From: a virus
IMG/VR virus record: IMGVR_UViG_3300037067_015055
Length of the DNA stretch: 64,000 nt
Strand: one strand, 5' to 3'
The notes under the pieces were generated by a model. The model saw only the letters and a list, made by a program, of their open reading frames with translations, did not search any database and was not told where the DNA came from. The position numbers and the translations under genes were made by a program. This document shows, one piece after another, positions 46,799 through 63,210 of this stretch (position 1 is the first letter of the stretch; the number at the start of each line of letters is the position of its first letter).

Positions 46799-46799
46799 T

Positions 46800-47468
46800 A
46801 TGGAAATACCAGACGATATGAAGCAGTTTTTTTCTAATGGAGAATATTGCGAGAAAAATGTATATTACCATTTACAAAGATTGGTTGATTGTAATTCTGT
46901 ATTTTATGATATTGGAGCAAATTATGGATATTATTCCGTTAGGTTAGCTGGTGTGTGTAAGCAGATATATTCATTTGAACCTGTCACGAAAACTTTTTCA
47001 GTATTGTGTGAAAATACATCAAATTTTCCAAACGTGAAACCGATTAAATTAGGCCTATTTAATGAGTTTGGTGAACATGAAATAAACCTCTATAATGTTT
47101 CTGGTTGTAATTCTCTGTTTAGAAGAAATGTGAATGTTTTAAGATATGTTGGAGTTGAAAATATTCAATTAGATACTCTAGATCATGTGATTGATTACTT
47201 AAACTTACTTCCACCTACTATAATCAAAATGGACGTTGAGGGAGTTGAGAAGCATATCCTACAAGGAGCCTCTAATACCCTAACTCACAAACCTGTATTA
47301 TTATTAGAATACGGAATAACTACAGCAAATGATTCTGGATATGATGTATCGGATATTTTAGAAATACTTACAGGATATGGGTATAAAATACAAAGCTTAT
47401 CTGGTGATAATGATTTGTTTTTGTATGATCAAATAGATACCTCTACAACAAATATCTTAGCGACATAG
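46800..47468 (+). CDS. FkbM-family SAM-dependent methyltransferase (Methyltransf_21)
   Basis: VFYDIGANYGYYSVRLAG...IYSFEPVTKTFSVL matches the FkbM motif (DiGAN.G..s......v.afEP.p..f..L). Confidence 0.65.
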   Translation: MEIPDDMKQFFSNGEYCEKNVYYHLQRLVDCNSVFYDIGANYGYYSVRLAGVCKQIYSFEPVTKTFSVLCENTSNFPNVKPIKLGLFNEFGEHEINLYNVSGCNSLFRRNVNVLRYVGVENIQLDTLDHVIDYLNLLPPTIIKMDVEGVEKHILQGASNTLTHKPVLLLEYGITTANDSGYDVSDILEILTGYGYKIQSLSGDNDLFLYDQIDTSTTNILAT

Positions 47469-48374
47469 AGTTTCAAGTATAGTTTTATAGCATCTCGGCA
47501 TACTTGTCTGGTAGAAGATTCCCATTGGATCATTCAAGCATTTAGTTGCTGCAATGGTGAATTGATTAAATTTTTCATTTGAGAATGTTCGTATTGCTTC
47601 CATTAGTGGTTCTTTAAGTAGTATTGGGGATTGGTTTGGTTTTTTGATGACAAAGTTTCTTAGATCAAAGAACGTATCTTTGGGAAGTATATCATCAACG
47701 TTATATGCCCCCAGATATAAAGGGACTGTACCACTATACATTACGTGTAATGGTTTTTCTGTAAAATAGTTGTGCGAATATATTGGGTCATAGGTATTTT
47801 CGGTACATATACCAAACCTATACCTAGATAGAACTCTTATCTTTTCAGGAATAGACCCACGGTAATATCTATTACCTGGATTGCTATGGCCAAACCAATC
47901 AACTACAAATCCATTTTCATAAAATAGATCTGCTAACATTTCCCTAAGACAATATATAGACGCTTGATGTGTAGAGGTTTTATTACAAGATATAATAACT
48001 ACACCATTAATACGTTCTTCCCATGTTGGCCATGTCAGTTTTACATTAGTCACCCTAGAATCACATAGTTCGGAACCGCAGTTGATTGGTACAAATTTAT
48101 CCTTGATCGCCGAGGTTTCAAAGAATTTATTCGCCCAGCTAAATACCGTTTTGAATTTCGAAAGGTAGTTTAGATCGTAGTGTGATGGAGTGGTAACTAT
48201 CGGTTCTAAAACAACAATACTGTCTTCTGATTGAGGATCTTTTGCATCTCCAAAAAATATGTTTGGCATCGATGGATCGCGGCAATTTGACATCCATACT
48301 TTACCTTCTTCGCCTTCGTATTCAAGAGTTCTACTTTGCCTGGCGTAGTATACAATATTTACTTCTTTGCACAT
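47457..48374 (-). CDS. Alpha-1,3/4-fucosyltransferase-like glycosyltransferase (GT10 family), minus strand
   Basis: FGICTENTYDPIYSHNYFTEKPLHVMYSGTVPLYLGA matches the GT10 signature (fENs...dYvTEK....l..g.VPVvlG); converges on and overlaps FkbM gene by 12 nt. Confidence 0.65.
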   Translation of the reverse strand: MCKEVNIVYYARQSRTLEYEGEEGKVWMSNCRDPSMPNIFFGDAKDPQSEDSIVVLEPIVTTPSHYDLNYLSKFKTVFSWANKFFETSAIKDKFVPINCGSELCDSRVTNVKLTWPTWEERINGVVIISCNKTSTHQASIYCLREMLADLFYENGFVVDWFGHSNPGNRYYRGSIPEKIRVLSRYRFGICTENTYDPIYSHNYFTEKPLHVMYSGTVPLYLGAYNVDDILPKDTFFDLRNFVIKKPNQSPILLKEPLMEAIRTFSNEKFNQFTIAATKCLNDPMGIFYQTSMPRCYKTILETLCR

Positions 48375-48397
48375 ATTCGTGGATATATCAAGAGTTT

Positions 48398-49009
48398 ATG
48401 CTCAAGCCTATTCGTGCTCTTGTTTATGAGTTTGATTTGAAGATTCGTGGCGTAATTCATATCGGCGGTCATTATGGTCAAGAATACTCTTCTTATAAAA
48501 ACTTTGGGCTTACCAATATAGTATTTGTAGAGCCTCAACCAAAAGTCTTTGGAATCCTTTCTCAAAATGTTGGTGTGGAATGTTTGCTATTCAATACCGC
48601 GCTTGGTAACTTTGAAGGGAAAACAGAGATGTTTACAGAAGAAGCTAATCAGGGGCAATCATCTTCATTATTGCAACCTAAAAAACATCTAAATCAGTAT
48701 CCAAATATCATATTCAATAGTAAAGTTGAAGTGGATGTTACTAAGTTAGATTTGCTACCACTTGATTTCCAGCTATATAACTTCATCAATATTGATGTTC
48801 AAGGATACGAACTGGAAGTTTTCAAAGGGGGAGTTGAGACACTAAAAAATATAGATTATGTCTATGCAGAGGTTAATAGGGCCGAGTTGTATAAAGGCTG
48901 CGCTATGGTGGAAGATATAGATAACTTCTTAGGCGAGTATAAGTTTAAGCGCGTTGATACGTGGTGGGATGGTGTAACTTGGGGTGATGCATTGTATATT
49001 AAAGGATGA
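48398..49009 (+). CDS. FkbM-family methyltransferase (second copy); real start ATG 48398 (MLKPIRAL...), the longer ORF-track start overlaps the GT10 gene
   Basis: GVIHIGGHYGQEYSSYKNFGLTNIVFVEPQPKVFGIL matches FkbM motif. Confidence 0.6.
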   Translation: MLKPIRALVYEFDLKIRGVIHIGGHYGQEYSSYKNFGLTNIVFVEPQPKVFGILSQNVGVECLLFNTALGNFEGKTEMFTEEANQGQSSSLLQPKKHLNQYPNIIFNSKVEVDVTKLDLLPLDFQLYNFINIDVQGYELEVFKGGVETLKNIDYVYAEVNRAELYKGCAMVEDIDNFLGEYKFKRVDTWWDGVTWGDALYIKG

Positions 49010-49010
49010 T

Positions 49011-49748
49011 ATGAATCATTTTGTAATTGTAATCCCAAGCTATCAAAATCGTATTTGGTGTGAAAAGACCTTGATGTCAGTTTTGACCCAGGAGTATCCT
49101 CATTTCAGAGCAATTTATTCTGATGATTGCTCTACCGATGGAACTGCCGATGAAGTTGATAGATTGTTAGCCGAGAAGGACAAAGATAAGCGTGTCACCT
49201 TGGTTCGTAATACAGAGCGTTTGTACGCGGTGCATAACATCTACAACATGGTTCATAGCTGCGATGATGATGAAATCATTGTGATGTTGGATGGTGATGA
49301 TTGGCTGGAAAATACGAATGTCCTATCCAGGCTTAGTGAGGAGTACGACAAAGGGATATGGATGACCTACGGGCAATATATCTCTCACCATGATCGAGAG
49401 ATCGGTTGTTCTTACCAGATCCCCAGGGAAATTATCGAGGCAGGGGCGTTTAGGCGCTACAGGTGGTGCTCTTCTCACCTGCGAACATTTTATGCTTGGT
49501 TATACAAGAAAATTCGTCCAGAGGATTTGATGCACAATGGTCAATGGCTAAAGATGTCTGGTGATTTGGCAGCTATGTTCCCGATGCTGGAGATGGCTGG
49601 TCCGAAACAATCGTTCATTCCAGATATTCTGTATGAGTATAATTACACATCTCCAATCAATGACGGTAAGATAAATAGAAACTTACAGATTGAATTGGAA
49701 AGGAAAATACGGTCAATGCATCCATATCAGAGAATATTAGAGAGGTGA
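49011..49748 (+). CDS. Glycosyltransferase family 2 (start likely ATG 49011, MNHFVIVIPSYQN...)
   Basis: FVIVIPSYQNRIW...AIYSDDCSTDGT GT2 signature; AAAGGA RBS; TGAnATG junction with upstream gene. Confidence 0.7.
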   Translation: MNHFVIVIPSYQNRIWCEKTLMSVLTQEYPHFRAIYSDDCSTDGTADEVDRLLAEKDKDKRVTLVRNTERLYAVHNIYNMVHSCDDDEIIVMLDGDDWLENTNVLSRLSEEYDKGIWMTYGQYISHHDREIGCSYQIPREIIEAGAFRRYRWCSSHLRTFYAWLYKKIRPEDLMHNGQWLKMSGDLAAMFPMLEMAGPKQSFIPDILYEYNYTSPINDGKINRNLQIELERKIRSMHPYQRILER

Positions 49749-49750
49749 GA

Positions 49751-50716
49751 ATGGGCGCTAAAATAGAGCTAGATATTTACACAATATATTCAGAACATTG
49801 TCGTGGAGTATCTGTCAGTTATTTGTCGAAAAAATATTCAGTTTCAAGAGAAACATTATTTAGAAGATTCAAAAGCCTTGGCCTTAAAACTAAGACTAAA
49901 ATGTCTTTATATAATGCTCAATCTGAGAATATAATACGTTTGTATATTTCAAATAATTCAATACAGGATATTTCTTTAACTTTATCAATTCCAGTTACTC
50001 AAGTATGGCGAGTTTTAAAATCAAATAACATTAAGGCTACCGAACAATATAATTACGTAAATAAATTTAATAAGTACGAGATTAATGAATATTTTGATAC
50101 TATAGACACTCCAAATAAAGCTTATTTTCTTGGTTTATTGTATGCTGATGGAAATGTAAACCGTAAACTTAATCAAATTACTTTAAAATTAAAAGCCTCT
50201 GATGTTCATATTTTAAATGATATAAAATACGAATTTGGAATAAATGGACCATTATACAAAGATAGACCAAAAAATCCAAGGGCAGAAAATCAACTGGCCC
50301 TAAAAATAATCAATAAACGCACAAAAGATAATTTTATAAGACACGGCGTAATTCCAAGAAAAACATGGAGATTAAGTTTTCCATTCTGGTTACCTCAAAA
50401 CTTGAGAAGTCACTTTGTTAGAGGTTATTTTGATGGAGATGGCTGTCTTTATATTGATCGGAATAGAAATAATGCGTCTTTTGATATATGTGGCACATAT
50501 AACATGTGCTCTGATTTGGAATTTGTACTGAAAAATTCCATTGGAGTTTGTACGCAAATTTCAAAAGATCGAAATATTTTTCGTATCAGAATTAGAAGAT
50601 ATATAGATGTAGTGGCTGTATGTAATTGGATGTATTATGATGCCAAGTTATTTCTCAAAAGAAAATATGATAAATACCAGGAAATTAGGAGTATGAATGT
50701 GCGCAACGTTTTATGA
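49751..50716 (+). CDS. Free-standing LAGLIDADG homing endonuclease with N-terminal HTH-like DNA-binding repeats
   Basis: Two LAGLIDADG motifs: AYFLGLLYADGNV and RGYFDGDGCLYI; very AT-rich (~28% GC) relative to flanks; inserted between two glycosyltransferase genes. Confidence 0.85.
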   Translation: MGAKIELDIYTIYSEHCRGVSVSYLSKKYSVSRETLFRRFKSLGLKTKTKMSLYNAQSENIIRLYISNNSIQDISLTLSIPVTQVWRVLKSNNIKATEQYNYVNKFNKYEINEYFDTIDTPNKAYFLGLLYADGNVNRKLNQITLKLKASDVHILNDIKYEFGINGPLYKDRPKNPRAENQLALKIINKRTKDNFIRHGVIPRKTWRLSFPFWLPQNLRSHFVRGYFDGDGCLYIDRNRNNASFDICGTYNMCSDLEFVLKNSIGVCTQISKDRNIFRIRIRRYIDVVAVCNWMYYDAKLFLKRKYDKYQEIRSMNVRNVL

Positions 50717-50727
50717 ATTAGGAAATC

Positions 50728-51426
50728 ATGGTCGTGCTGGGCAATGCATTATTTCAGATAGCTACCACTATCGGATATGCAAAGAAGTACAACGTACCAT
50801 TTTGTTTCCCTAAATGGGAATATCAATCTCTCACAAATATACCAGAAGATTGTTTCGTAGACAAGTCATCCATCCGAGTGTCAACTTATTTCAAAGAACC
50901 TCGATACGTCTATTCAAACATACCATTTCAAGATAGTTGTTCTCTATCTGGGTACTTTCAAAGCTGGAAATATTTTGAGAATTGTCAGGATTACATAAGG
51001 AAAATGCTTTCCCCAATTCCAGAAGAAGATTTAAAAGAATATTGCTGTATTCACGTTAGACGCGGAGATTATTTGAGGTATCCAGAACATCACCCAATTC
51101 AAACAATGCAGTATTATATGAGTGCTGTCGAAAAGATTCCTGTGAAGAAATTCATGGTATTTTCAGATGATGTTGCTTGGTGCAAACAGAACTTTACTGG
51201 TAATGAATTTACTGTAAATGAAACTTCTTCTGTAACCTCTGATTTTCGAAGAATGGTTAATTGTTCTCATTTCATCATTGCCAATAGTTCGTTCTCTTGG
51301 TGGCCAGCCTGGCTTAGTTCAAGAGTTGGTAAAGTAGTTGTAGCGCCTAGTAATTGGTTTGGTTCAAAATTAAAAAAATCAAATCCCATAACAGATCTTA
51401 TTCCTCCAGGGTGGATTGTTATATGA
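50728..51426 (+). CDS. Alpha-1,2-fucosyltransferase-like glycosyltransferase (GT11 family)
   Basis: N-terminal VVLGNALFQIAT (GT11 motif I, GGLGNQ.FQyA) and CIHVRRGDY (GT11 HxRRGD motif). Confidence 0.7.
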   Translation: MVVLGNALFQIATTIGYAKKYNVPFCFPKWEYQSLTNIPEDCFVDKSSIRVSTYFKEPRYVYSNIPFQDSCSLSGYFQSWKYFENCQDYIRKMLSPIPEEDLKEYCCIHVRRGDYLRYPEHHPIQTMQYYMSAVEKIPVKKFMVFSDDVAWCKQNFTGNEFTVNETSSVTSDFRRMVNCSHFIIANSSFSWWPAWLSSRVGKVVVAPSNWFGSKLKKSNPITDLIPPGWIVI

Positions 51427-52307
51427 TAAAAAAGGTTATCTTCTTTAATACATATCACAATGGAGATATACATGTGAGTAGGAGCTTGGTCGGAGCTATA
51501 TCTGATATTTGTGCCAAGAGAAATATACCATGTGAATATTGTCATGGGAATGGTTCTTCTCTATTAGCAGATATAAAAAATCTTACTCATGTACCAAATC
51601 GTTACGGTCTACATGCTCATTTTCCAAGTTCAATAGTTGGTAATGTTTTATTCATCAATACTTGGTATTGTGCAGATATGAATAACTTTCAAAAGTACAA
51701 TCTTACATTTGATTGTTTATACATGAATTTCAAGGAGTCGGCTAAATGGTTAGATATTGATCTGGATACCATTTCCGGAATTGAACTATTCCCGAACATT
51801 AATTTTGAACATTTTGCGATTGGTAAGGCAAAAGAATGGTTGGGAAGCCGCTCTCGTCCATTAGTCTTCGTCTCGAATGGAAGTGCTTTATCTGGGCAGG
51901 CTACAAATTTCTCCTTTTCTGAAATCATACATAAACTGGCACAAGAGTATGATTATATTGATTTTTTAATTTCTAATACCGAGGCAAATTACAAACCAAT
52001 GCCGAATACATTCATGACATCAGATATTATCCAGAAGGTTGGGTGTGATCTAAATGAAAATGCGTATTTGGCTGGTCATTGCTCATTGATTTTAGGGCGC
52101 TGTTCTGGAGCTTACAGTTTCGCGGTAAATCGCCAAAACTATTGGGATAATCCGAAGACATTTTTGGCCTTCACTACTCTGAAGCCTAGTGAAGCAATTT
52201 GGACTCATCAATTCACCCCTCCTGTTCTGGCAAAAATCATATCGCATGACGTATCTGATCATAGGGTGATTGATTTGATTAGAGAGCATCTACCATCAAA
52301 ATTTTGA
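51423..52307 (+). CDS. Putative glycosyltransferase-like protein (GT-B/GT9-like C-terminal region); start ATG 51423 overlapping upstream stop
   Basis: ...NENAYLAGHCSLILGRCSGAYSFA resembles the donor-binding region of GT9/GT-B enzymes; weak. Confidence 0.3.
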   Translation: MIKKVIFFNTYHNGDIHVSRSLVGAISDICAKRNIPCEYCHGNGSSLLADIKNLTHVPNRYGLHAHFPSSIVGNVLFINTWYCADMNNFQKYNLTFDCLYMNFKESAKWLDIDLDTISGIELFPNINFEHFAIGKAKEWLGSRSRPLVFVSNGSALSGQATNFSFSEIIHKLAQEYDYIDFLISNTEANYKPMPNTFMTSDIIQKVGCDLNENAYLAGHCSLILGRCSGAYSFAVNRQNYWDNPKTFLAFTTLKPSEAIWTHQFTPPVLAKIISHDVSDHRVIDLIREHLPSKF

Positions 52308-52333
52308 GACTAGTACACGTTATATATTGAACT

Positions 52334-53431
52334 ATGATTCCTATCTACAAACCGTTTTGGCCAAAAAACTCCAAGAACTATGCACTGAAGGCGCTGGAGG
52401 ATTGTTGGCTCATTATGCACGACAACAATACTATCGTGGAAGAACAGCTTGCAGAAAGGACTGGTGCAAAACATGTTATTCTTACATGTAATGGAACGGC
52501 CGCTATTCATTTGGTAGCTAAATGCCTACAATATAAGCATCCAGAAGTTACCCAACTTATCGTGCCTAATCTGGTCTATGTTGCTGCCTGGAATGCATTC
52601 CTACAAGAAAATTTCGGCCTGCATATGGCTCGAACAAATCTGAATACATGGAACTTCGATGTGGAACATGTTGCTAAGCTGGTTGACTTTAAGAATTCGG
52701 CCATTCTTGCTGTTCATAATCTTGGTAATCCACTACCAGTCCAAGAACTTCTTAAATTTGGAATTCCTGTGGTGGAAGATGCCTGTGAAGCGCTATTTGG
52801 CAGCTACGGTGGCCAGAAGGTTCCGTCCCTAGGCTTGGCCTCAGCTTTATCATTCTTTGGTAACAAAACAGTTACATCAGGAGAGGGTGGCGCTTTTGTA
52901 ACAAATGATGATGAATTAGCTGACTATGCCAAAAGACTACGCGGTCAAGGGCAAACAAGTCAAAGGTATATTCACGATGTCTTGGGATACAATTATCGGA
53001 TGACTAATATTCAAGCGGCGATATTAAGGGGACAATTAGAGTATGCCGATGAAATATTAGATAGAAAAGCTGATATATGGAATTATTATGATGAGGCTTT
53101 TTCTAATAGAGAAGATGTTCTTATACAAATGACAGAGAAGGATAGTTCCCATTCAAAGTGGATGTATGGAATTAGACTCCCTAATAGGAATGAATCATTT
53201 GAGGTTAAGCAAGCATTCTTTAATAGTCGAGGGTTTGACATTAGGCCAATGTTTTATCCTATGAGGTATCATGCTCATCTAAAAGAAAATCGTAATGTCT
53301 GGATTTGTAATGATGAAGTTGGAGATTTAATATCTCAAAGTTCGATAATGCTACCGAGTTTCCCAGATATAACTAGGGAAGAGCAATCAATAGTGATATC
53401 TTCCGTGAATGAGTTTTTGTGTCATTATTAA
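52334..53431 (+). CDS. PLP-dependent sugar aminotransferase, DegT/DnrJ/EryC1/StrS family
   Basis: ...TCNGTAAIHLVAKCL...VVEDACEALFGSYGGQKVPSLG...SFFGNKTVTSGEGGAFVTNDDELADYAKRLRGQG matches the family hallmarks including the active-site Lys region (F..NK.i..GEGG). Confidence 0.8.
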   Translation: MIPIYKPFWPKNSKNYALKALEDCWLIMHDNNTIVEEQLAERTGAKHVILTCNGTAAIHLVAKCLQYKHPEVTQLIVPNLVYVAAWNAFLQENFGLHMARTNLNTWNFDVEHVAKLVDFKNSAILAVHNLGNPLPVQELLKFGIPVVEDACEALFGSYGGQKVPSLGLASALSFFGNKTVTSGEGGAFVTNDDELADYAKRLRGQGQTSQRYIHDVLGYNYRMTNIQAAILRGQLEYADEILDRKADIWNYYDEAFSNREDVLIQMTEKDSSHSKWMYGIRLPNRNESFEVKQAFFNSRGFDIRPMFYPMRYHAHLKENRNVWICNDEVGDLISQSSIMLPSFPDITREEQSIVISSVNEFLCHY

Positions 53432-53575
53432 TTTCTCGAAGCATTTATGACAACTGTGTAGATGAATTGATGGAATTTAAAACTAAATGTTTAGGGTATT
53501 TAAGAGATAAGAGATCTAACTCTGGCTTAGTAAATAATTTGCCAATGAGGTCATGATTGCTGACAAAAGGATAAG

Positions 53576-54733
53576 ATGAATATTGAAATTATCAAAAGAG
53601 CTATCTATGCCGTAATTCCGAAGAATGTACATGTTTCTAATGTAGATATCAAAGAGGACAATGGAAAGCTATCCATACAGATTAGCTGGGCAGTTTTTAC
53701 GGATAGCGCGCCCAGATTGGATTTGGAATTCGGTAGTGATAATAATTGGTGTGATGGATATGTCCGCATACCTACCCACCCACCCATTATAGACTTCGAT
53801 CAACGGATACCTATTGGTAAACTGGATTTACCAGAGGCCCTTCAAGAGGCCAACAAGCTTCGGGCAGAAGAGATTGATAAGTCGAATGCTGAATCTATTA
53901 GAGAGGCAGAAGATGCTCGTATTTTGGAAGAGTTAATCAAGAAAGCTACTGGTCCAGATGCGGTAACAAAGCCCACAGCTGATGTGCGAGAAGTGCGAAC
54001 GCCAGAAGGTAGAAAGGTGAATCGAATCAGCCTTCCGAAAGATGTGACTGTGGTTGCCAAGGGTACTGACCAATATGAAAAGGCTCTGATTCGTGCAGGA
54101 ATAGATCCGTTAATAGCTAAAGACATGGCTGAACCATTGCCACCAAAAAAGCCATTGCCACCAAAAAAGCAACTAAAGATAACCGTAGAAGGAAAGTTGG
54201 TAACTCCAATTGATCTACCCTTGCGAGAGTTGAAAGTTCCTAGCCCAAATACCAAGGCAGAAGCTGAATTTCGTAGGAAGATTTATCCAGGAGTCTTTCG
54301 GCGTGCAGAACCAGACGGTTACACTACAATCATTGTTGATGGTAAACCAAAGGTGATTGATGGTTACCAGAAGCCGCGCAATGTCAAAAATGCTTTTGAG
54401 GTAGTTGCCGAGTACAAGAAGGCCGTTGAGGCGTACGATAAGCGCTTTGCGAATGTTAGGTCGCCTCTCGCACCAAAGCCGAATGCCAATGATAAAGGCA
54501 AGCGTGGTGTTGCTGCTCTCACGTCTCATGCCCTACCTTTCTCACATCGGGATAGGAAGGTTACTGATGTTGAAGTTATGTTCATGGCCAATGAGAAGAT
54601 GGCAAAATTAACAGATTCGCCTTCGTTGCTTGATGACCTGAAAGCTATCGAAGTCAAGCTGCCACCTCAAACCAAGCTCAATAGAATAATGTTCCATCTA
54701 AGATCAATCAAGAACGAAATACTAAGGAAGTAA
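53576..54733 (+). CDS. Hypothetical protein (385 aa) with tandem PLPPKK repeat
   Basis: Complete ORF; 18-nt exact tandem duplication at 54134-54169. Confidence 0.3.
   Translation: MNIEIIKRAIYAVIPKNVHVSNVDIKEDNGKLSIQISWAVFTDSAPRLDLEFGSDNNWCDGYVRIPTHPPIIDFDQRIPIGKLDLPEALQEANKLRAEEIDKSNAESIREAEDARILEELIKKATGPDAVTKPTADVREVRTPEGRKVNRISLPKDVTVVAKGTDQYEKALIRAGIDPLIAKDMAEPLPPKKPLPPKKQLKITVEGKLVTPIDLPLRELKVPSPNTKAEAEFRRKIYPGVFRRAEPDGYTTIIVDGKPKVIDGYQKPRNVKNAFEVVAEYKKAVEAYDKRFANVRSPLAPKPNANDKGKRGVAALTSHALPFSHRDRKVTDVEVMFMANEKMAKLTDSPSLLDDLKAIEVKLPPQTKLNRIMFHLRSIKNEILRK
54134..54169 (+). repeat. Exact 18-nt tandem duplication (ccattgccaccaaaaaag x2), in frame (PLPPKK x2)
   Basis: Seen directly. Confidence 0.9.
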
Positions 54734-54807
54734 TGGCTAAGAGGAAGAAAGTTCTAGTAACAGGTAGTGGTGGCCTCTATCAATATTTAGATATTTGTAT
54801 ATGTTGA
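54733..54807 (+). pseudogene. Remnant 5' fragment of an NAD-dependent epimerase/dehydratase gene: encodes MAKRKKVLVTGSGG then diverges and stops
   Basis: First 14 aa identical (one L/M difference) to the N-terminus of the intact epimerase gene at 55675 but with 11 synonymous nucleotide differences; immediately upstream of a homing-endonuclease-like gene. Confidence 0.55.
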
Positions 54808-55682
54808 TTTCGGAGAGACCTTTAGGTAAAAGAACTAGGGAGTTTTTGATTAGGTGTGAATCGTGTGGAACTGAAGAATGGTTGCCTGGTAAGAAATGTA
54901 AGTTTGGTGGCAGAAGGTATTGTTCAAAGAAGTGCATTAATCTTGGGCGACATAAATCAGAAGAACAAAAAAAGCATTTATCCGATGTAAGTCTTGGAGA
55001 AAAGAATCACTTCTTTGGGAAGCGCCATTCTAAGACATCAAAGGAAAAAATGTCAGAAACTCACAGCGATCTTGGTGGTCTATACCATATGATGAAAGCC
55101 AAACTATCAGCTGATGAGTTTGATATTTACTGGAGTGAATACTGCAGTAAATTTATTGGTGCCAAAAATCCATTCTTTGGAAAGGTGCATTCCTCAGCTA
55201 CCAGAGCAAAGATATCAATAACAAGATCTAATCTAATATCAAGTGGCCAAATTGATATCAAGCCTAGTCATTATGGACTTAAAGGATATTATACATCAAA
55301 AAAAACAGGAGAGGTGTTTAGGTTCGATTCCTTTACAGAATATATTAGGATGATTGTTCTTGATACGGATGATAATGTTACAACGTGGACAAAAAGACAT
55401 AAAATAAGAATCCAGTATGAATTCGATGGTGAACAGAAGAACTATATACCAGATTTTTTAGTTGCTAAAATTGATGGCGAGGTTATAGAGGAAGTGAAGG
55501 GTTATGAGAATAAAAAAAAGAAGGAAGCGAAATTTTCAGCTCTGCGGGCATACTGTAAAGAACATGGGTTTGGTTGTAGTATTGTGACATATGAGGATGT
55601 CAGAAATATGTGTCTGAGTCATTTTGGGAAAAGTATAGATGTTTTAAGAGAACAATACAAAAAGGGATTATTTCATGGCTAA
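54801..55682 (+). CDS. Homing-endonuclease-like protein: N-terminal CxxC Zn-finger, two NUMOD3-like motifs (NHFFGKRHSKTSKEKMS, NPFFGKVHSSATRAKIS), C-terminal PD-(D/E)xK-like nuclease motif (IPDFLV...IEEVKG)
   Basis: Motifs read from translation; inserted between a gene remnant and its intact copy; start ATG 54801 (ORF track used TTG at 54795). Confidence 0.5.
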   Translation: MLISERPLGKRTREFLIRCESCGTEEWLPGKKCKFGGRRYCSKKCINLGRHKSEEQKKHLSDVSLGEKNHFFGKRHSKTSKEKMSETHSDLGGLYHMMKAKLSADEFDIYWSEYCSKFIGAKNPFFGKVHSSATRAKISITRSNLISSGQIDIKPSHYGLKGYYTSKKTGEVFRFDSFTEYIRMIVLDTDDNVTTWTKRHKIRIQYEFDGEQKNYIPDFLVAKIDGEVIEEVKGYENKKKKEAKFSALRAYCKEHGFGCSIVTYEDVRNMCLSHFGKSIDVLREQYKKGLFHG

Positions 55683-56604
55683 AAGAAAGAAGGTAATGGT
55701 CACTGGTTCAGGAGGGTTTATTTTCGGAAACTTCATTCGACAAGTTTTCTATTCTAAGCTGCCCTACACCATTTCTAGTATTGACAGGGTAAGAGACTCC
55801 CATATCATTCATAATATCTATGTGAACGCCGATCATTCGTTCCATATTGCGGATATTACGGATGCTCATATTCTACATGTAATCTTTGAGAAGGAACGCC
55901 CAGATATTGTAATACATGGTGCGGCTGAAACTATAGATGAACAGTCGATGAACAGCCGCAACATTTTTGGCACCAAGGCTGTCGTCAATGAATGCTTGAA
56001 GATGGAGTCGAAGCTGATTTACGTGAGCACAGATCGAGTTTATGGAGATCTTGGATCCGAGGAGGTTCCGCTTCGGAAGGAGGCTGATCCAGTCAATCCA
56101 CATGGAGTTCTTGCAACAACCAAGGCCAGCGGCGAGGCGTTCGTCAAGGGCGCTTCTGGTTTGGATTACAACATTATTCGCCTGAGCAATAATTACGGGC
56201 CATGGCAGACGGTTTCGGGTCTCATTCCTCATATTATTGATGGAATATTTGATGAGAAACCAGTTGAGATATATGGGACTGGATCTCAAACAAGAGATTG
56301 GACTCATGTCTTTGATACTTGTTCTGCGATATTTGCTATTATCGAAAATTGGGTTGGCGGAGAGATATATAACATAACTTCCAAACAGGAATTTAGCAAT
56401 CTTGAGGTTGTTCAAATAGTTTGTAATGCCCTTAGTAAAGGGCATGAGTTAGTAAAACATGTCGAGAGAGATTTTGATTCTAGATATGCTATGGCTAATG
56501 ATAAAATCAAAGCACTAGGGTGGTCTCCACAATTCAAGTTCAGAGATGGAATTGCTCAGACTTGCCAATGGTATCTGAATAATAAATATGTGCTAAAGAT
56601 GTAA
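55675..56604 (+). CDS. NAD(P)-dependent sugar epimerase/dehydratase (extended SDR family)
   Basis: VMVTGSGGFIFGNFI Rossmann motif; YVSTDRVYGD; NPHGVLATTKASGE region (expected PYxxSK has His in place of catalytic Tyr); NNYGPWQ. Confidence 0.75.
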   Translation: MAKRKKVMVTGSGGFIFGNFIRQVFYSKLPYTISSIDRVRDSHIIHNIYVNADHSFHIADITDAHILHVIFEKERPDIVIHGAAETIDEQSMNSRNIFGTKAVVNECLKMESKLIYVSTDRVYGDLGSEEVPLRKEADPVNPHGVLATTKASGEAFVKGASGLDYNIIRLSNNYGPWQTVSGLIPHIIDGIFDEKPVEIYGTGSQTRDWTHVFDTCSAIFAIIENWVGGEIYNITSKQEFSNLEVVQIVCNALSKGHELVKHVERDFDSRYAMANDKIKALGWSPQFKFRDGIAQTCQWYLNNKYVLKM

Positions 56605-56618
56605 TATTTAGGTAAATA

Positions 56619-59411
56619 ATGGTAACTCAATCAAAAGTTGAAATTTTAAATCAAGAGGAAATCGTGAACGACATAGAGGAAACACCACAAGTGGATTTGG
56701 AAAAGTTAGCTGCACTAAAGGCCCGAGCCGCTCAAAAAAGAGCTGAGGAAGAGGCTGCTCAGAATGCGGTGAAAACAGAACAGGAGGAGCCTATGCCGCT
56801 GCGCATTATAGAGGAGCAACAGAGAAGCCTTCGCTTTGGTATTATCGGTTCAGGACAGGCCGGTTGTATTGATGGTAAAACAAATGTATTTATTTCCAAT
56901 GATGGTATCATTTCTATAGAAGAGTTTTTTAATAAACAATTAAAATCTTCTACTGTACAAGATATTGATGCAAAATCAGGGGAAATATGTGTTAAATTAC
57001 CTTCTGATAAAAATATCTTTACAGTATCAATAAATCCAGAAACAGGAGAACTTTGTAAACGCAAAGTAATGGCTGTTTGGAAGTTGAAAAAACAATCTAA
57101 AAATAAGATTATAACAGAATCTGGCACTGAATTAATTTGTTCAAAGGTTCATCCTAGTTTAGTATTCAGTCCAAGCGTAAGGAAGCGTGCTCATTTTAAA
57201 TCTTTTAAATCAATTTCAAGCAGTGATCGTTTTGTTGGTATTAGATCTAGTGTTATTGATCAATTATCTTCAGAAACTTCTGTTGGGGGTATAACTATTA
57301 CTGAGGATATTGCTTGGGTTTTGGGTTTATTTGCCGGGGATGGATCCACAACAAAGAGTGGAAATGAGATAGCATTTTATCTTAGCGATTCTGGTACATT
57401 AGAAAAAGCATCTGGGATTTTAAATGGTTTATTTGCCAGTTCGATTTCTATTAGCGATCAGCCGGGTTGTAAAAAATTATCTGCTTTTGGGTTTAAAATT
57501 AGGTATTTCTTTGAATCTGCTTTTAATATATTTAATGGAAAGACATATGGCGGGTTTGGATCTAAAACTTTTACAATAGATATTCCTTCTTGTATATCTT
57601 CGGCTAGCTCTAATATCAGAGCCTCGTTTATTGCCGGTTTATTAGATTCTGATGGAACAATTTGCAAAGATTGGTGTGAGTCGAGTATCTCTACTGTCTC
57701 TGGGTTATTAGCAGATAAGTTATGCTGCTTAATTGCCTCTATTGGTGGTAGGGCTCATGTTGAAGTGGTACTTCCTAGAAACGGAAGGGATAACGAGAAA
57801 ACTTGTTATAGAGTTAGGATTAGTGGTAAAATAAATCATGGACCACTGTTAGATAAAATAGTTGAGTGTCTTGCACATTCAGACAAGAAAGATAAACTTA
57901 ATTATTGGTTAAGTGCAAATCAAAAAAGCTTTATCTCTTCTTCTGTACCTTTATCGTTTGAAGAGTTGTCTTATTGGTTAAAAGATGAAGGAGGGATGAC
58001 AACTGTTAATAATTTATCAGAACGTTCTGGTGTGTGTTTAAAGGGCTGGAGTCGTGGTGAAAGGAAGTTATCTATTCCAGCATTTGAGAAAATGCTTGAT
58101 GTTTTAGAACCCTCAGAACAAGCTGAATATATCAAATCAATTTGTCCAAAGTTGGATGTGGTCAAGGAGGTGTTTGAAGATATTGAATCTGATGATATTT
58201 TTTATGACTTAACCGTTGAAGAACATGAAAATTATTTAGCTGGTAATTTTGGATTTATTTTTACTCATAATAGCCGTCTTGCTGAGCAATTTTTCGCACT
58301 TGGATATCCTTCGGTTTGTATGAATACAGCCCCTCAGGACTTGGAGAATATCAAGATCCCTGAACAGCAAAAACTGCTCTTGGACTTTGGTTTGGGTGGT
58401 GCTGCCAAAGATCTGTCTATCGGCCATGATGCTGCAGACGCCTATCGTGCCGCCATCAACCAACTGATTCAGCGTCATCTCAGTGACGCAGAGATGTTCA
58501 TCTTCTGCACGTCACTTGGAGGCGGATCTGGCGCAGGATCTGTTCCTGTTGTAGTTGATATCCTGGCACAAATTGGGAAGCCAGTTGCGGTGCTCACGGT
58601 TCTTCCAAAGGCCAGCGAAGATGCTCAGCTCAAGCACAACGCATGGCAAACCTTGAGTAAGTTCACGAAGCTTTTCGCTGATGGCAAGATTCACAATATC
58701 ATTACCGTTGATAACGCGAAGATCGAATCGTTGTACAGTGAGGTTGGGCCATTCAATTTCTTCAACGTATCAAATAAGGCCATCGTAGAGCCTCTGAACG
58801 TCTTCAATACGCTCAGCCGCCGGCCAGATGAAGGCGTCAAGGTTCTGGACTCCAGCGAGTTCGGCAAGCTGTTCATGGACGGCCGTGGATTCACTGTATA
58901 CGGCGTCACCAGCGTCCCAGACTACGAAGATGAGATGGCAATCGCCACCGCTATCGTAGACTCTCTCAAGGGCAATCTGCTTGCTTCTGGGTTCAACATT
59001 CGGCAGGCTCGATATGCCGGTTTCATGCTCGTAGCTCCGGAGAAAATCTGGAACAAGATTCCAAGCTCCAGTCTCCACTTCGCACAGTCTATGATTCTTG
59101 ATGCCTGTGATGGAGCTGTCATCTTCCATGGTATTTACAAGGAAGAATCTGATGACGATTGTATCAAGGTCTATTCGATGTTCTCTGGGCTTGGGTTACC
59201 AGAGGAAAGAATTGATCAACTGAAGACCGAAGCACAGTTGAAGATTGGAGTGGCGCAGCGCAAGGACGAGGCGCGCAATCTCACAATGAAGGTTGACGTT
59301 GGCGAAGAGACCGTCAATCAGGTTGAGGAAATCAAGAAGAAGATTCAGCAGAAAGCCTCATCCTTCACCAAGCTTCACAATGCGGCCGTACAAGACAGGA
59401 GAAAGAAGTGA
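56619..59411 (+). CDS. Tubulin/FtsZ-superfamily GTPase (PhuZ/TubZ-like phage cytoskeletal protein), 930-aa precursor interrupted by a 469-aa intein; mature extein ~461 aa
   Basis: N-extein ends FGIIGSGQAG and C-extein resumes SRLAEQFF (together a tubulin T1-loop-like GQAGsrlaeqF, cf. tubulin GQCGNQIG); tubulin signature SLGGGSGAGS (GGGTGSG-type) downstream. Confidence 0.65.
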   Translation: MVTQSKVEILNQEEIVNDIEETPQVDLEKLAALKARAAQKRAEEEAAQNAVKTEQEEPMPLRIIEEQQRSLRFGIIGSGQAGCIDGKTNVFISNDGIISIEEFFNKQLKSSTVQDIDAKSGEICVKLPSDKNIFTVSINPETGELCKRKVMAVWKLKKQSKNKIITESGTELICSKVHPSLVFSPSVRKRAHFKSFKSISSSDRFVGIRSSVIDQLSSETSVGGITITEDIAWVLGLFAGDGSTTKSGNEIAFYLSDSGTLEKASGILNGLFASSISISDQPGCKKLSAFGFKIRYFFESAFNIFNGKTYGGFGSKTFTIDIPSCISSASSNIRASFIAGLLDSDGTICKDWCESSISTVSGLLADKLCCLIASIGGRAHVEVVLPRNGRDNEKTCYRVRISGKINHGPLLDKIVECLAHSDKKDKLNYWLSANQKSFISSSVPLSFEELSYWLKDEGGMTTVNNLSERSGVCLKGWSRGERKLSIPAFEKMLDVLEPSEQAEYIKSICPKLDVVKEVFEDIESDDIFYDLTVEEHENYLAGNFGFIFTHNSRLAEQFFALGYPSVCMNTAPQDLENIKIPEQQKLLLDFGLGGAAKDLSIGHDAADAYRAAINQLIQRHLSDAEMFIFCTSLGGGSGAGSVPVVVDILAQIGKPVAVLTVLPKASEDAQLKHNAWQTLSKFTKLFADGKIHNIITVDNAKIESLYSEVGPFNFFNVSNKAIVEPLNVFNTLSRRPDEGVKVLDSSEFGKLFMDGRGFTVYGVTSVPDYEDEMAIATAIVDSLKGNLLASGFNIRQARYAGFMLVAPEKIWNKIPSSSLHFAQSMILDACDGAVIFHGIYKEESDDDCIKVYSMFSGLGLPEERIDQLKTEAQLKIGVAQRKDEARNLTMKVDVGEETVNQVEEIKKKIQQKASSFTKLHNAAVQDRRKK
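56865..58271 (+). mobile_element. Intein with LAGLIDADG homing-endonuclease domain, inserted in the GTP-binding T1 loop of the tubulin-like gene
   Basis: Starts Cys (CIDGKTNVFISNDGIISIEEF, Hint block A), ends ...FIFTHN followed by Ser (+1); internal LGLFAGDGS and FIAGLLDSDGT LAGLIDADG motifs; ~33% GC versus ~47-49% in exteins. Confidence 0.85.
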
Positions 59412-59475
59412 AGCTTTCCATTGACGAAGACGGAACCATTGAGGTCATGGAGTTGTCCAAAAGATGGGTGGATGA

Positions 59476-60033
59476 ATGACAGATAAATACGTAGCCTCCA
59501 ATTATTTCCTACGGCCTGAAGCTGGATATTATCAGCGGATGTTTGTGATCGATCCATTGGGTTCATTAGAGCATCACTTATACCCCAAATACGAAGCAGA
59601 TAAGACTGATACTAGTTATTTTGTTAGTAAAAGAGGGACTGTTAGTAAAAGAGGGACTGTTAAGAAGGGGTTTTTCAAAACAATTACTGTTGATTTGCTA
59701 AATCCGTTGAAATATGATCCTGAAAAAACCATTGCTAGATTTTTAAAGTTTGTTATCAATGATCATATTGAAAATAACCTTAGATGTGTATCGTTTGATG
59801 AGGTGTTGAAAAAAATTGTAAGTTCTGAAAAGCCTGCGGTTTGTGAAAGGTTAAGGGTTGCTGGGTCTAAATTGGTTTTCCCAATAGATGGTATTGATGA
59901 GGATATTGCCGTTATTTTTCCAGATCCAGAGTTATTTGGGTGTTTGCCATTTATTACAGATGGAAACAAAATGGGTGGCTATGGTATTTTCTGTTGGGGC
60001 GGAAGCGGCATTGAAGTATTTAGGATTCAATGA
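59476..60033 (+). CDS. Hypothetical protein (185 aa) with in-frame 18-nt tandem duplication (VSKRGTVSKRGT)
   Basis: Complete ORF; repeat at 59633-59668. Confidence 0.3.
   Translation: MTDKYVASNYFLRPEAGYYQRMFVIDPLGSLEHHLYPKYEADKTDTSYFVSKRGTVSKRGTVKKGFFKTITVDLLNPLKYDPEKTIARFLKFVINDHIENNLRCVSFDEVLKKIVSSEKPAVCERLRVAGSKLVFPIDGIDEDIAVIFPDPELFGCLPFITDGNKMGGYGIFCWGGSGIEVFRIQ
59633..59668 (+). repeat. Exact 18-nt tandem duplication (gttagtaaaagagggact x2), in frame
   Basis: Seen directly. Confidence 0.9.
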
Positions 60034-61511
60034 CAGCAATTATTCGGTACCAGAACTCCTGCAGGATCGCTGAAGAAGATGATGAGGAAATTTTAGGAGC
60101 ATTGGACAATGAGCTGTCCTTTAAGCTTCTTGGTGCCGAATTTTCCCAAGCTTACAAAGGCTACACCAACGATCTAGGTGAATTTGTAACCTGGGACGGT
60201 AAGCGCCATCTATTATCAGCGAGCGGAAAGTTCCCAGTTGGTTTGCTGCCGCGTGTGATGGATTTCTATGCTTCAAAGGGGTGCCGCCCAATGATAATAG
60301 ATGAACGTCCGCAAATTGAAAGGTCAACGCCACTTGATATTACCAATAACTTACGGGCTATCGGTAAGGAAGCTCGACCCTATCAAGAGAGCGCCGCCAA
60401 CGCTGCTGTGGAAACAGACCGTGGCATCATTCGGCTTGCCACGGGATCTGGAAAAACTTTAGTGTCGGCTTTAATTACTGCTAAGATTGGTAAATCTTCG
60501 ACAATTTTAGTAATCGGTAAGGATTTGTTATATCAAACACAATCTTTTTTCAAAGAAGTATTTAGACAAGAAATTGGCATTATTGGAGATGGCAAATGCG
60601 AAATTAGAGACATTAATATAGCTACTATTTGGAGTGTCGGCCAGGCGTTAGGCCTGACTGGTACAGTGACACTGGATGATGATGGTTTGGTAGAAAAGAA
60701 AACAGATCCAGAGAAATTTTCTAAGATCAAGGGCATGTTGTTGAATTCTGGTACGATAATACTCGACGAATGTCATTTGGCAGCTTGCGATACTGTACAA
60801 GTTATTGCTCGAAATATCAAAGCTGAATATGTATACGGAATGTCTGCTAGTCCATGGCGTGATGATGGAGCGGATATGCTCATCGAAGCTTTCCTTGGAC
60901 GAAAGATCGTTGATGTTTCTGCTAGAGAGCTAATTAAGCAGGGGTATTTGGTTCCGCCAAGTATCAGGTTCATTGCCCCCATGCCGTATCAGTTCAAGAG
61001 CGGAAAGTACCCAAGCATTTACTCCAGATATATTGTCGAGAACGAACAGCGCAACTCGATGGTTGTGAAGGCCACAAAAAGTATGGTCGAGCAAGGCTTT
61101 GTGCCGCTCGTACTGTTCCACACCATCAAGCATGGCGATGTTCTGTTCGATCACATGAAGAAGACGGTACCAACTGGACTTCTGAGTGGAAAGGACAGTG
61201 CAACACAACGCGAGAAGATTAAGGATGAGCTGGAAAGTGGCAAGATCAAATGCTTGGTGGCGAGTAAGATTTTCGATATTGGGGTTGACCTACCGATACT
61301 TTCCGGGCTGGTTATTGCTGGCGCTGGTAAATCGTCTGTTAGAGCTTTGCAACGGATAGGTCGAGTCATCCGTCCTTACAAGGGAAAGAAGATGTCTGCG
61401 ATTATTGACTTTGCAGATCAGGCCCCATATCTGAATAAACATTCTGAAATTAGGCGAGAGATATACGAGTCGGAGTTTGATGTAACATGGCCCCAAGAAA
61501 AAAAGCAGTAG
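60030..61511 (+). CDS. Superfamily 2 DNA/RNA helicase (DEAH/DECH-box; UvsW/XPB-like)
   Basis: Walker A RLATGSGKTLVSAL, motif II ILDECHLAA, motif VI-like QRIGRVIRP. Confidence 0.8.
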   Translation: MTAIIRYQNSCRIAEEDDEEILGALDNELSFKLLGAEFSQAYKGYTNDLGEFVTWDGKRHLLSASGKFPVGLLPRVMDFYASKGCRPMIIDERPQIERSTPLDITNNLRAIGKEARPYQESAANAAVETDRGIIRLATGSGKTLVSALITAKIGKSSTILVIGKDLLYQTQSFFKEVFRQEIGIIGDGKCEIRDINIATIWSVGQALGLTGTVTLDDDGLVEKKTDPEKFSKIKGMLLNSGTIILDECHLAACDTVQVIARNIKAEYVYGMSASPWRDDGADMLIEAFLGRKIVDVSARELIKQGYLVPPSIRFIAPMPYQFKSGKYPSIYSRYIVENEQRNSMVVKATKSMVEQGFVPLVLFHTIKHGDVLFDHMKKTVPTGLLSGKDSATQREKIKDELESGKIKCLVASKIFDIGVDLPILSGLVIAGAGKSSVRALQRIGRVIRPYKGKKMSAIIDFADQAPYLNKHSEIRREIYESEFDVTWPQEKKQ

Positions 61512-62134: not shown

Positions 62135-62549
62135 AATAGGCTCTATTATAAAGATCATTTGTATCAACAATGTTATCGAAGCCGGAAAGCTTGTCGAGTA
62201 TACTGATGAGCAGATGGTACTTGAATTGTTTGATAGATCTTTGTTTATTGTACAAGACCCGTTCAAGAATGTGATGTGTATTAGGCTCACCCCACAAACA
62301 ACGGAGTCGAGTGAGCAGGGGGAGGTTTTTGTAGAATTGGAGCCCGAACCTGCTCACTACTATCGCCAAGAGGATTTGAGGGCAAAAAATTTGGCGGAGC
62401 TGCATAAGCTAAAGGCCGCTGAGGAACGGAAAAGAGCTCGTGAGCTACTGCAAAGATCTAAGAATATCGAAACCCTTCCCGAGGTAGATTTTGGATCCCC
62501 ATTTTTCACAAAGTCCATTCTTAAACATCCCAAGAAAAAAGCTCGATGA
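62124..62549 (+). CDS. Hypothetical coiled-coil protein (141 aa)
   Basis: Charged/heptad-like C-terminal half; 3' end overlaps next ORF through an A-run. Confidence 0.3.
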   Translation: MEIKIGSIIKIICINNVIEAGKLVEYTDEQMVLELFDRSLFIVQDPFKNVMCIRLTPQTTESSEQGEVFVELEPEPAHYYRQEDLRAKNLAELHKLKAAEERKRARELLQRSKNIETLPEVDFGSPFFTKSILKHPKKKAR

Positions 62550-63210
62550 TGCGCTTGATGATATTCTCGAAGCTCAATCGAACAATGGCATCTTAACTCC
62601 TGGTGGGGCAGCTCTCACTACAGCCTTCACTCGTTATTACGAAGCTAATATTCCGGTTGATTATTGGTGGCGTGAAATGGATGGTTGGTCTGGGCCAGAT
62701 AAATTAACACGTATTTATTTAGACATCACTAAAGATATAAAAGCCTCCTATAAAAGTGGAGAAAAGGCTTTCTTTGCTGGGAAGCACGGAATTGGGAAAA
62801 CTTATATTTCGTGTTGTATTCTTAAGCGTGCAGTTGAGAAACAATATAGTGCCTTGTATGTCAACTTGACGGACATCATTCATATCATGTTGAACTCTTC
62901 ACCTCAGGTAAAATCTGATGCAAGAGAAATATTATTAAATGTAGATTTTTTGGTAATAGATGAGTTTGATGCTCGTTTCATGGGTAGCGAGAATGCCGCA
63001 GATCTATTTGGCCGTATTCTAGAACCCATCATGCGAACGAGAATCCAGAATAGGATGCCACTCTTCTTCTGTACCAACAGTGTGAAGGTTGAGGAAAGTT
63101 TTTCAGGTCCTTTGCGTGCGAGTATTGAAAGTTTGATGAAGGTGGTTAAATTGGTGCCGATAATTGGTGGCCAAGATATGAGAGATATGATTAAGAAGGG
63201 GGAATTATGA
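62491..63210 (+). CDS. DnaC/IstB-like AAA+ ATPase (putative helicase loader)
   Basis: Walker A FFAGKHGIGKTYIS, Walker B FLVIDEFDARF; sits directly upstream of DnaB-like helicase. Confidence 0.6.
   Translation: MDPHFSQSPFLNIPRKKLDDALDDILEAQSNNGILTPGGAALTTAFTRYYEANIPVDYWWREMDGWSGPDKLTRIYLDITKDIKASYKSGEKAFFAGKHGIGKTYISCCILKRAVEKQYSALYVNLTDIIHIMLNSSPQVKSDAREILLNVDFLVIDEFDARFMGSENAADLFGRILEPIMRTRIQNRMPLFFCTNSVKVEESFSGPLRASIESLMKVVKLVPIIGGQDMRDMIKKGEL

Follow-up and report, generated by a model that had tools for sequence, protein, structure and literature searches.

A predicted LAGLIDADG intein in the T1 loop of a TubZ-like tubulin gene of an uncultivated phage

The locus

The stretch of DNA analyzed here, which we call the window, comprises the 64,000 nucleotides (nts) of the IMG/VR virus record IMGVR_UViG_3300037067_015055. 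One of its genes, a single open reading frame (ORF) of 930 codons, encodes a protein of the tubulin/FtsZ family that is interrupted by 469 amino acids (aa) with the features of an intein (Table 1). We consider that this insert is very probably a canonical class-1 intein with a two-motif LAGLIDADG endonuclease of the PI-PfuI/PI-SceI type, and that it occupies the T1 loop of a TubZ-like protein of an uncultivated tailed phage.

The insertion falls in frame between Gly82 and Ser83 of the host protein, with FGIIGSGQAG before it and SRLAEQFF after it. A first-pass annotation, made from the letters of the window, had proposed an intein at this place, with a Cys at its start (CIDGKT), a terminal HN followed by Ser, and two LAGLIDADG blocks. 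All of these are present on translation, the flanking residues are identical to those it gave, and its boundaries are matched to the base both by the translation and by the junction of a related contig, described in the next section. Splicing in silico reproduces the 461-aa length that it announced for the joined exteins. The calculated masses, 102.2 kDa for the precursor, 51.5 kDa for the intein and 50.7 kDa for the spliced product, come close to its figures of ~53 kDa (intein) and ~51 kDa (product).

The frame of the intein is open throughout: it has 0 stop codons, versus 38 expected from the base composition and 27 and 65 in the two alternative frames. The chance of a frame staying open over 469 AT-rich codons is very small (P about 6e-18).

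An allele with an empty site

The decisive evidence comes from an allele in which the site is empty. The protein P0001, found in a large protein collection, is 461 aa long, which is the predicted spliced length; it has 97% aa identity to the spliced protein, and it reads QRSLRFGIIGSGQAGSRLAEQFFALGYPSV uninterrupted. Its contig, L001, is metagenomic and syntenic with the window, with the same succession of epimerase, tubulin, small ORF, and UvsW-like helicase genes. Positions 1903-3108 of L001 align to window positions 55659-56864, and positions 3108-4260 align to 58271-59423. Because L001 is colinear with the window at 56864 and 58271, the insertion is precise to the base. At the level of sequence, this empty-site allele confirms the insertion of the intein.

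The exteins of the window and L001 differ at 124 of 1386 nts (91% nt identity). The codon differences are 107 synonymous and 12 non-synonymous, and it follows that the host gene is under purifying selection. Within 30 nts on each side of the site only one base differs between the two. IMG/VR loci add 74 other empty sites.

Intein blocks, domains, and predicted fold

When the insert is aligned with PI-PfuI, Cys1 falls on Cys1, and blocks A, F, and G are found at the positions given in Table 1. A phmmer comparison with PI-PfuI (1dq3) has E = 1e-20, with Cys1 and the terminal HN as the ends of the alignment. The two proteins are near-identical in blocks F and G (FYDLTVEEHENYLAGNFGFIFTHN vs. FYDLTVENYQNYLAGENGMIFVHN), and the end of the insert reads FYDLTVEEHENYLAG...GFIFTHN, followed directly by the Ser of the C-extein. 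The S-x-x-H pattern of block B (S93-K-V-H96) is kept in the three other in-frame T1 inteins that we aligned (L003/P0121, L006/P0122, and L007), and it is lost only in a free-standing copy discussed below. The cores of the two LAGLIDADG motifs read GLFAGDGS (D159) and AGLLDSDGT (D263), and D159, D261, and D263 are invariant in an alignment of eight sequences.

The Pfam search that the first-pass annotation had suggested finds Intein_splicing (3e-12), Hom_end (6e-8), and LAGLIDADG_3 (8e-8) in the insert, all over their curated cut-offs, and Intein_splicing is matched through profile position 155 of 155. The residues of the splice junctions align with blocks A and G of PI-PfuI as well as with this profile to its last position, and the misalignment that the annotation had named as counterevidence is not seen. 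The presence of two LAGLIDADG blocks together with intein features is far beyond chance, and as a reading of the sequence we regard it as confirmed.

The predicted structure points in the same direction. The AlphaFold2 (AF2) model of the intein has a mean predicted local distance difference test (pLDDT) of 74, with the Hint and endonuclease cores mostly at 80-93; the segments that form the Hint domain have pLDDT 77-93 (intein residues 1-100) and 74-88 (residues 431-469). The best Foldseek match of this model is 1dq3 (E = 7e-25, template modeling scores 0.71/0.73). TliVMA, PI-TkoII, and PI-SceI (7qss, 2cw7, and 1vde among the top matches) and several mini-inteins are matched as well.

Table 1. 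Features of the window and of related contigs. Positions are those of the window unless another contig is named; a slash marks a splice junction or insertion point; GC, fraction of G plus C.
Feature	Position	Strand	Sequence, residues or description	Basis or remark
Precursor	56619-59411	+	TubZ-like tubulin/FtsZ-family protein plus predicted intein; 930 aa plus stop	ORF translation, Pfam
N-extein	56619-56864	+	82 aa: low-confidence N-terminal extension, strand S1, first half of T1 loop	
T1 loop, N-extein part	56847-56864	+	GSGQAG	
Predicted intein	56865-58271	+	469 aa (precursor residues 83-551); class 1, LAGLIDADG homing endonuclease, PI-PfuI-like	Pfam, 1dq3 match, AF2/Foldseek, L001 comparison
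Block A	56865-56882	+	CIDGKT, from precursor residue 83; Cys1 (codon 56865-56867), predicted first nucleophile	PI-PfuI alignment
Block B	57135-57158	+	ICSKVHPS; Ser93-x-x-His96, TxxH equivalent	S-P-W-H in PI-PfuI
First LAGLIDADG motif	57312-57347	+	AWVLGLFAGDGS; intein residues 150-161, Asp159	
Second LAGLIDADG motif	57624-57659	+	SFIAGLLDSDGT; intein residues 254-265, Asp263	
Block F	58200-58244	+	FYDLTVEEHENYLAG	PI-PfuI alignment
Block G	58251-58271	+	GFIFTHN (precursor residues 545-551); penultimate His468, terminal Asn469	PI-PfuI alignment
C-extein	58272-59411	+	379 aa plus stop: Ser+1, helix H1 (SRLAEQFF), T4 signature, TubZ-like C-terminal domain	
Ser+1 codon	58272-58274	+	AGC, directly after the intein	
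T4 signature	58512-58541	+	SLGGGSGAGS	in C-extein
Candidate endonuclease target	L001 empty site		TTTGGTATTATCGGTTCAGGACAGGCAGGT/AGCCGTCTTGCTGAGCAATTTTTCGCACTT	predicted
T1 allele L003/P0121			GLGQAG/CIDGNT...LFTHN/SRVAEQF	GC: intein 0.287, exteins 0.34-0.40
T1 allele L006/P0122			GSGQAG/CVYANT...	ends at contig end; GC: intein 0.368, upstream flank 0.379
T1 allele L007	L007 3737-6541		GTGQAG/CIDGNT...MFTHN/SRIAESF	934-aa precursor; contig Ga0272446_1000003, 353,765 bp; GC: intein 0.288, exteins 0.35-0.38
T1 allele L008			...LFTHN/SRMAETF	only C-terminal intein end and C-extein
T1 allele P0128			VGCGQGG/CVDGDT...LVHN/SRLAESF	intein 32% identical; more diverged tubulin; 60-kb contig with RecA and Pol III alpha
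T1 alleles P0129, P0137, P0255			same T1 site	fragments
Free-standing intein relative P0123	L004 610-1947		445 aa	GC: gene 0.237, tubulin 0.331
Tubulin gene beside P0123	L004 1966-3324		452 aa, intact	
T4-site insertion P0136	L090 3-2390		GLGGG/CVAGS...TIHN/TGAGS	gene ends at contig end
Sugar-modification cluster	41442-56604			
323-aa ORF	49745-50716	+	probable free-standing homing endonuclease	
295-aa ORF	54795-55682	+	probable free-standing homing endonuclease	
Slot between tubulin and helicase genes	59424-60034		ORF 59476-60033, 185 aa	
DnaC/IstB-like ATPase, window copy	62491-63210		GKHGIGKTYIS, uninterrupted	
DnaC/IstB-like ATPase, L001 copy	L001 6936-8801		GKHGIGK/MQDL...PTHN/T	

The host protein

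Several comparisons support a host protein that is a TubZ-like member of the tubulin/FtsZ family, with the junction in T1, the glycine-rich loop that connects strand S1 to helix H1. In the tubulin/FtsZ fold, the T1 loop touches the nucleotide phosphates. The spliced protein matches Pfam Tubulin with 54.5 bits (cut-off 33; 2.5e-14) over profile positions 5-187, and the unspliced precursor over positions 47-187 only. Alignments to RepX/TubZ (FGFLGLGMGGCAIA) and to CetZ (IGVGQAGGKLA) continue across GSGQAG-SRLAE. The extein thus aligns through the junction with its homologs, in Pfam Tubulin as in RepX/TubZ and CetZ, and the break that the first-pass annotation had named as its second possible refutation does not occur.

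A profile built from 44 homologs matches RepX (1.6e-27) and Bacillus thuringiensis TubZ (1e-18) over the full length and the TubZ of phage c-st with 6e-16, while its match to FtsZ is confined to the GTPase domain. Across these homologs GSGQAG is conserved, G79, G82, and the T4 signature vary little or not at all, and the N-terminus of the extein is common to them as well. In the AF2 model of the spliced protein (predicted template modeling score 0.72, core pLDDT 85-97), strand S1 comprises residues 73-78 and is followed from residue 79 on by helix H1, which places the junction G82/S83 at the T1 loop and the N-terminus of H1. The best Foldseek match is B. thuringiensis TubZ (2xka, E = 3e-24), with TubZ, CetZ, and FtsZ structures at 1e-18 to 3e-24. 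The relationship is distant: identity to TubZ is about 20%, and Pfam TubZ-like_C scores 23.3 bits against a cut-off of 26.

The first-pass annotation had named PhuZ, TubZ, and FtsZ together as relatives. The tubulin/FtsZ assignment holds, and the best profile and Foldseek matches are to TubZ; the likeness to PhuZ does not hold. We rejected membership in the PhuZ family: the match to the PHROG 'tubulin PhuZ' is partial (8.5e-8, 79 residues), the best PHROG match of the extein is an unannotated family, and PhuZ structures are absent from the best 60 PDB profile matches and the top 50 Foldseek matches. Among the immediate neighbors of the tubulin gene, which is as far as this search went (centromere repeats were not part of it), there is no TubR-type adaptor gene.

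Other alleles of the intein

The window intein is not alone: diverged phage tubulins provide at least eight more alleles at the same T1 site, with identities of 32-57% (L003, L006, L007, L008, P0128, P0129, P0137, and P0255; Table 1). The pairwise identity is 43-57% among five sequences of the intein family, counting the free-standing copy on L004, and 44-51% among the host tubulins. On the side of absence, none of 80 homologous IMG/VR loci has an intein-like sequence within 2.5 kb of the tubulin gene, including L010 and L011, which are 86% identical; the extra length of the intein is found in none of the best 120 protein matches; and scans of IMG/VR with the intein alone and with an intein alignment have no match. 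A scan of GTDB genomes reports only a 30% relative in a Micrarchaeota metagenome-assembled genome and one fragment. Outside tubulins, the window intein is most closely related to inteins of ribonucleotide reductases and of subtilases. Judged by these comparisons, the element is rare and patchy, yet old within the tubulin gene family.

The alleles differ in what they have kept. In L007, both LAGLIDADG aspartates are replaced (AGNGH, DSSG), and Cys1, SKKH, and THN followed by S are kept; this intein is probably endonuclease-dead and splicing-competent. The reverse is seen on L004, where a free-standing gene (P0123) is 44% identical to the window intein over its whole length and sits between the epimerase gene and an intact tubulin gene. 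P0123 starts with MSLDGDT (Cys1 is lost), has SKLN instead of SKVH, and ends in GLIFI followed by a stop (HN is lost). Both of its LAGLIDADG motifs are intact, and it matches Pfam Hom_end and LAGLIDADG_3 and does not match Intein_splicing. It looks like a splicing-dead intein turned free-standing homing endonuclease, in an arrangement that rests on one metagenomic contig of 3.5 kb. Together, the empty, endonuclease-dead, and free-standing splicing-dead copies look like snapshots of a homing cycle.

Three other observations belong here. The TubZ-like protein P0136 has a related intein in its T4 signature loop, which makes two insertion sites for this GTPase family. In L003, the C-extein is ~24 residues short (nts 2690-2730): it stops after PIVVIGYNK, and the rest of the gene is in the next ORF, from either a decaying gene or an assembly error. 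Finally, Ser+1 is encoded by AGY in the window, L003, L007, and L008, and by TCN in 63 of the 69 empty IMG/VR sites that have a Ser; L004 has TCC, and a distant intein in L009 has TCG. This association has a Fisher p = 8.5e-4 in a test that ignores kinship, and it could reflect target specificity or immunity, or co-conversion.

Base composition and the origin of the intein

The intein has a GC content of 0.330, versus 0.463 for the N-extein, 0.496 for the C-extein, and 0.408 for the window, which bears out the ~33% against ~47-49% of the first-pass annotation. At third codon positions (GC3) the values are 0.205 for the intein and 0.563 for the C-extein, and since both belong to one ORF, this gap is not due to expression level. 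In three of the four other lineages measured (L003, L007, and L004, not L006) the intein is also AT-richer than the host gene. Other endonuclease genes of the window are likewise AT-rich (GC 0.293 for the 323-aa ORF and 0.354 for the 295-aa ORF in Table 1), and no gene segment measured within the window is richer in GC than the tubulin extein.

From this contrast the annotation had concluded a recent acquisition from an AT-rich donor, a claim that we keep in part. Horizontal arrival from an AT-rich pool of these elements is likely, as the sampled intein relatives are in AT-rich phages. That the arrival was recent is suggested by presence versus absence between the window and its 91%-identical relative L001; the donor is unsampled. 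Against a recent date and a distinct AT-rich donor stand the nearest sampled intein relative, only ~50% identical, the inteins as diverged as their host tubulins, the low GC of the other endonuclease genes of the window, and the junction itself, where no co-conversion tract is seen in comparison with L001 (6-8 mismatches per 90 nts at the flanks, 1-16 elsewhere).

Alternatively, the intein could be an old, vertically inherited resident of the tubulin lineage that L001 lost precisely, for instance by recombination with an empty allele. This is the alternative that survives best, and we still find it a good deal less likely than horizontal arrival. It agrees with the equal divergence of T1 inteins and host tubulins. 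Next to the junction, divergence from L001 is no greater than elsewhere in the gene, so there is no sign of a tract co-converted from a distant donor, and low GC may be a standing property of these elements, which are AT-richer than the host gene in three of the four other lineages measured. Vertical residence does not sit well with the difference in GC3 within one ORF. And it would need many independent precise losses to produce the sporadic distribution in the IMG/VR loci, where even the 86%-identical relatives lack the element.

Predicted splicing and homing

We infer the following course from conserved residues and established intein biochemistry. The precursor would be translated as a single chain. 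Cys1 would then attack the carbonyl of Gly82 in an N-S acyl shift, forming a thioester that would be handed to the hydroxyl of Ser+1. Cyclization of Asn469 would release the intein, and an O-N shift would leave a GSGQAG-SRLAE peptide in a tubulin with an intact T1 loop. As long as the 51-kDa insert interrupts the nucleotide pocket, the precursor is expected neither to bind GTP nor to polymerize. Once free, the intein would be expected to cleave the empty T1-coding site of related phages that infect the same cell, and it would be copied into that site as the break is repaired (homing).

Some points weigh against the interpretation of the insert as a working intein. Splicing, DNA cleavage, and homing are predictions; region 352-429 of the intein is predicted with low confidence by AF2; and the precursor of the window is absent from the public protein collection and known from this sequence only. 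Also, the same-site allele L003 has a disrupted C-extein, and judging from it, some intein-bearing copies may be decaying or misassembled.

Could the intein have been kept for a function of its own? One could imagine a post-translational switch, in which conditional splicing (e.g., redox control via Cys1 and other cysteines) times the appearance of polymerization-competent tubulin in infection. The insertion splits the nucleotide-binding loop, so the activity of the protein must depend on splicing; the intein has 14 cysteines; and L007 retains all splicing residues with both endonuclease aspartates lost. Conditional splicing is documented for other inteins, such as that of mycobacterial DnaB (PMC6195587, PMC8557812). 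Yet the great majority of the homologs do without the intein, including the close relative with the 97%-identical tubulin, and splicing that outlives the endonuclease is what one would expect for any intein in a needed gene. The switch is purely conjectural, and we think it improbable.

A decayed, non-splicing insertion that leaves the tubulin gene of this phage a pseudogene could be imagined from the truncated C-extein of L003 and from the fact that splicing of the window precursor is a prediction, and it is very improbable given that no splicing residue and neither LAGLIDADG aspartate has been lost, that the frame has stayed open over its AT-rich codons, and that synonymous changes so outnumber non-synonymous ones in the comparison with L001. 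A canonical class-1 intein remains the interpretation we prefer.

Phage context and neighboring elements

The genes of the window, nearly all on the same strand, include a tail sheath protein, a baseplate wedge subunit, glycosyltransferases, and a UvsW-like helicase, and the tail sheath and baseplate genes agree with the phage origin assumed at first. A megablast of the gene against GenBank phages gives no match. A tblastn of the extein against the same phages matches only gp138 of Bacillus phage G (26%), and the neighboring helicase is <37% identical to that of any cultured phage. Metagenomic contigs of 200-480 kb, in IMG/VR and elsewhere, often carry homologous tubulins, and the closest IMG/VR ones (86% identity) are on contigs of 216 and 392 kb. 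Because of these contigs, the source is probably a very large uncultivated tailed phage; the 64-kb window itself cannot show genome size.

Upstream of the tubulin gene lies a sugar epimerase gene, an adjacency that is conserved in L001, L003, L004, and L007. This epimerase, which is NAD-dependent, belongs to a sugar-modification cluster directly upstream of the tubulin gene, together with glycosyltransferases of families 2 and 11, FkbM-type methyltransferases, and an aminotransferase. Downstream lies a variable ORF without a Pfam match. The segment between the tubulin and helicase genes is a variable slot: in the window its 185-aa ORF has a low GC (0.364), and L001 and L002 have there an unrelated ORF of 75 aa.

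Two other ORFs of the window are probably free-standing homing endonuclease genes, judging from their domains. The 295-aa ORF has two NUMOD3 motifs and a TnsA-like endonuclease N-terminal domain, and the segment 54745-55658 is missing from the syntenic L001. The 323-aa ORF has a LAGLIDADG_3 domain and a GC3 of 0.21, and it lies between glycosyltransferase genes. In L001, a DnaC/IstB-like ATPase has an insertion of ~370 aa with a LAGLIDADG_3 domain exactly in its Walker A motif, which the window copy has uninterrupted. This insertion ends in HN followed by T and starts with Met rather than Cys or Ser, and it is intein-like only.

Standing in the literature and significance

In surveys, the hosts of inteins are mainly proteins of replication, recombination, and repair, and the usual site is an ATP-binding P-loop (PMC4760082); that 2016 survey of intein hosts (Novikova et al.) does not mention tubulin, FtsZ, or GTPase. 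A 2023 paper on Anaeramoeba (PMC10710043) describes the cytoskeleton as a category not reported earlier as intein host, and lists dyneins and a kinesin and no tubulin. In the literature that we searched, which did not extend to InBase, no report names tubulin, FtsZ, TubZ, or PhuZ as the natural host of an intein; the papers that came up use inteins as tools or are unrelated. The first-pass annotation had called an intein in a cytoskeletal GTPase uncommon, and both this search and the 0 of 80 IMG/VR homologs agree with it. We describe the intein itself as an ordinary member of the PI-PfuI/PI-SceI type, in a host family and at T1 and T4 insertion sites for which we found no published precedent.

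The recurrent T1-loop intein extends the rule that inteins home into nucleotide-binding glycine loops to the tubulin fold and to a cytoskeletal/segregation protein. Within one gene family there are empty sites and apparently complete, endonuclease-dead, free-standing splicing-dead, and T4-site alleles, and this set offers a compact natural system for the homing cycle and for the transition from intein to free-standing endonuclease in phages. As new tools, the intein could serve for splicing between Gly at -1 and Ser at +1, and its endonuclease could serve as a rare cutter whose target can be inferred. A broader proposal, which we offer as speculation and doubt in its full form, is that the T1 and T4 loops of TubZ-like tubulins of huge phages are an undescribed intein niche, that some lineages have co-opted the T1 intein as a splicing-dependent switch for GTP binding and polymerization, and that the same family gave rise to an HO-like free-standing endonuclease.

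Comparison with known systems

The closest relative of known structure is PI-PfuI, the ribonucleotide reductase intein of Pyrococcus furiosus (1DQ3). The two have similar lengths (454 vs. 469 aa) and share a CIDGK start, an HN end, an S-x-x-H block B, and two LAGLIDADG motifs, with blocks F and G closely similar (FYDLTVEN..NYLAG / IFVHN); ribonucleotide reductase inteins are also among the nearest non-tubulin relatives of the window intein. They differ in the host protein and insertion site, with a sequence identity of only about 21%, and in the source, a hyperthermophilic archaeon versus a phage of mesophile-like composition. The window intein has Ser as its +1 residue, and its region equivalent to the extra subdomains of PI-PfuI is modeled at low confidence. 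PI-SceI, the VMA1 intein of yeast, gives its type to the endonuclease family that the window intein matches (Pfam Hom_end), but its sequence similarity is distant (E = 1e-3).

HO is a free-standing relative of the VMA1 intein. The gene P0123 on L004 resembles it as an intein-like sequence that lost its splicing residues and became a separate gene. Unlike HO, P0123 lies directly upstream of the gene that its relatives invade, as in the 'intronless homing' of phages, and it has no host function such as the mating-type switching that HO serves.

For the extein, the best profile matches are TubZ/RepX, the partition GTPases of Bacillus type III plasmids, and phage c-st TubZ, and TubZ is also the best structural match. 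The extein shares with them a GxGxxG T1 loop, a GGGSGAG T4 signature, and a basic C-terminal tail. It differs from them in its ~20% identity, in an N-terminal extension of ~70 aa, and in having a sugar epimerase gene upstream and no TubR-like partner adjoining. PhuZ of the nucleus-forming jumbo phages is also a tubulin-superfamily GTPase of large phages, with a weak partial PHROG match, but it is absent from the best PDB-profile and Foldseek matches of the extein.

Finally, inteins of P-loop ATPases such as DnaB, RecA, and terminase (PMC4760082) are similarly inserted in the most conserved glycine-rich nucleotide loop of an NTPase, and the related phage contig L001 has its intein-like insertion in a Walker A motif. 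The window intein differs from them in that the host fold is that of tubulin/FtsZ, and the nucleotide is GTP.

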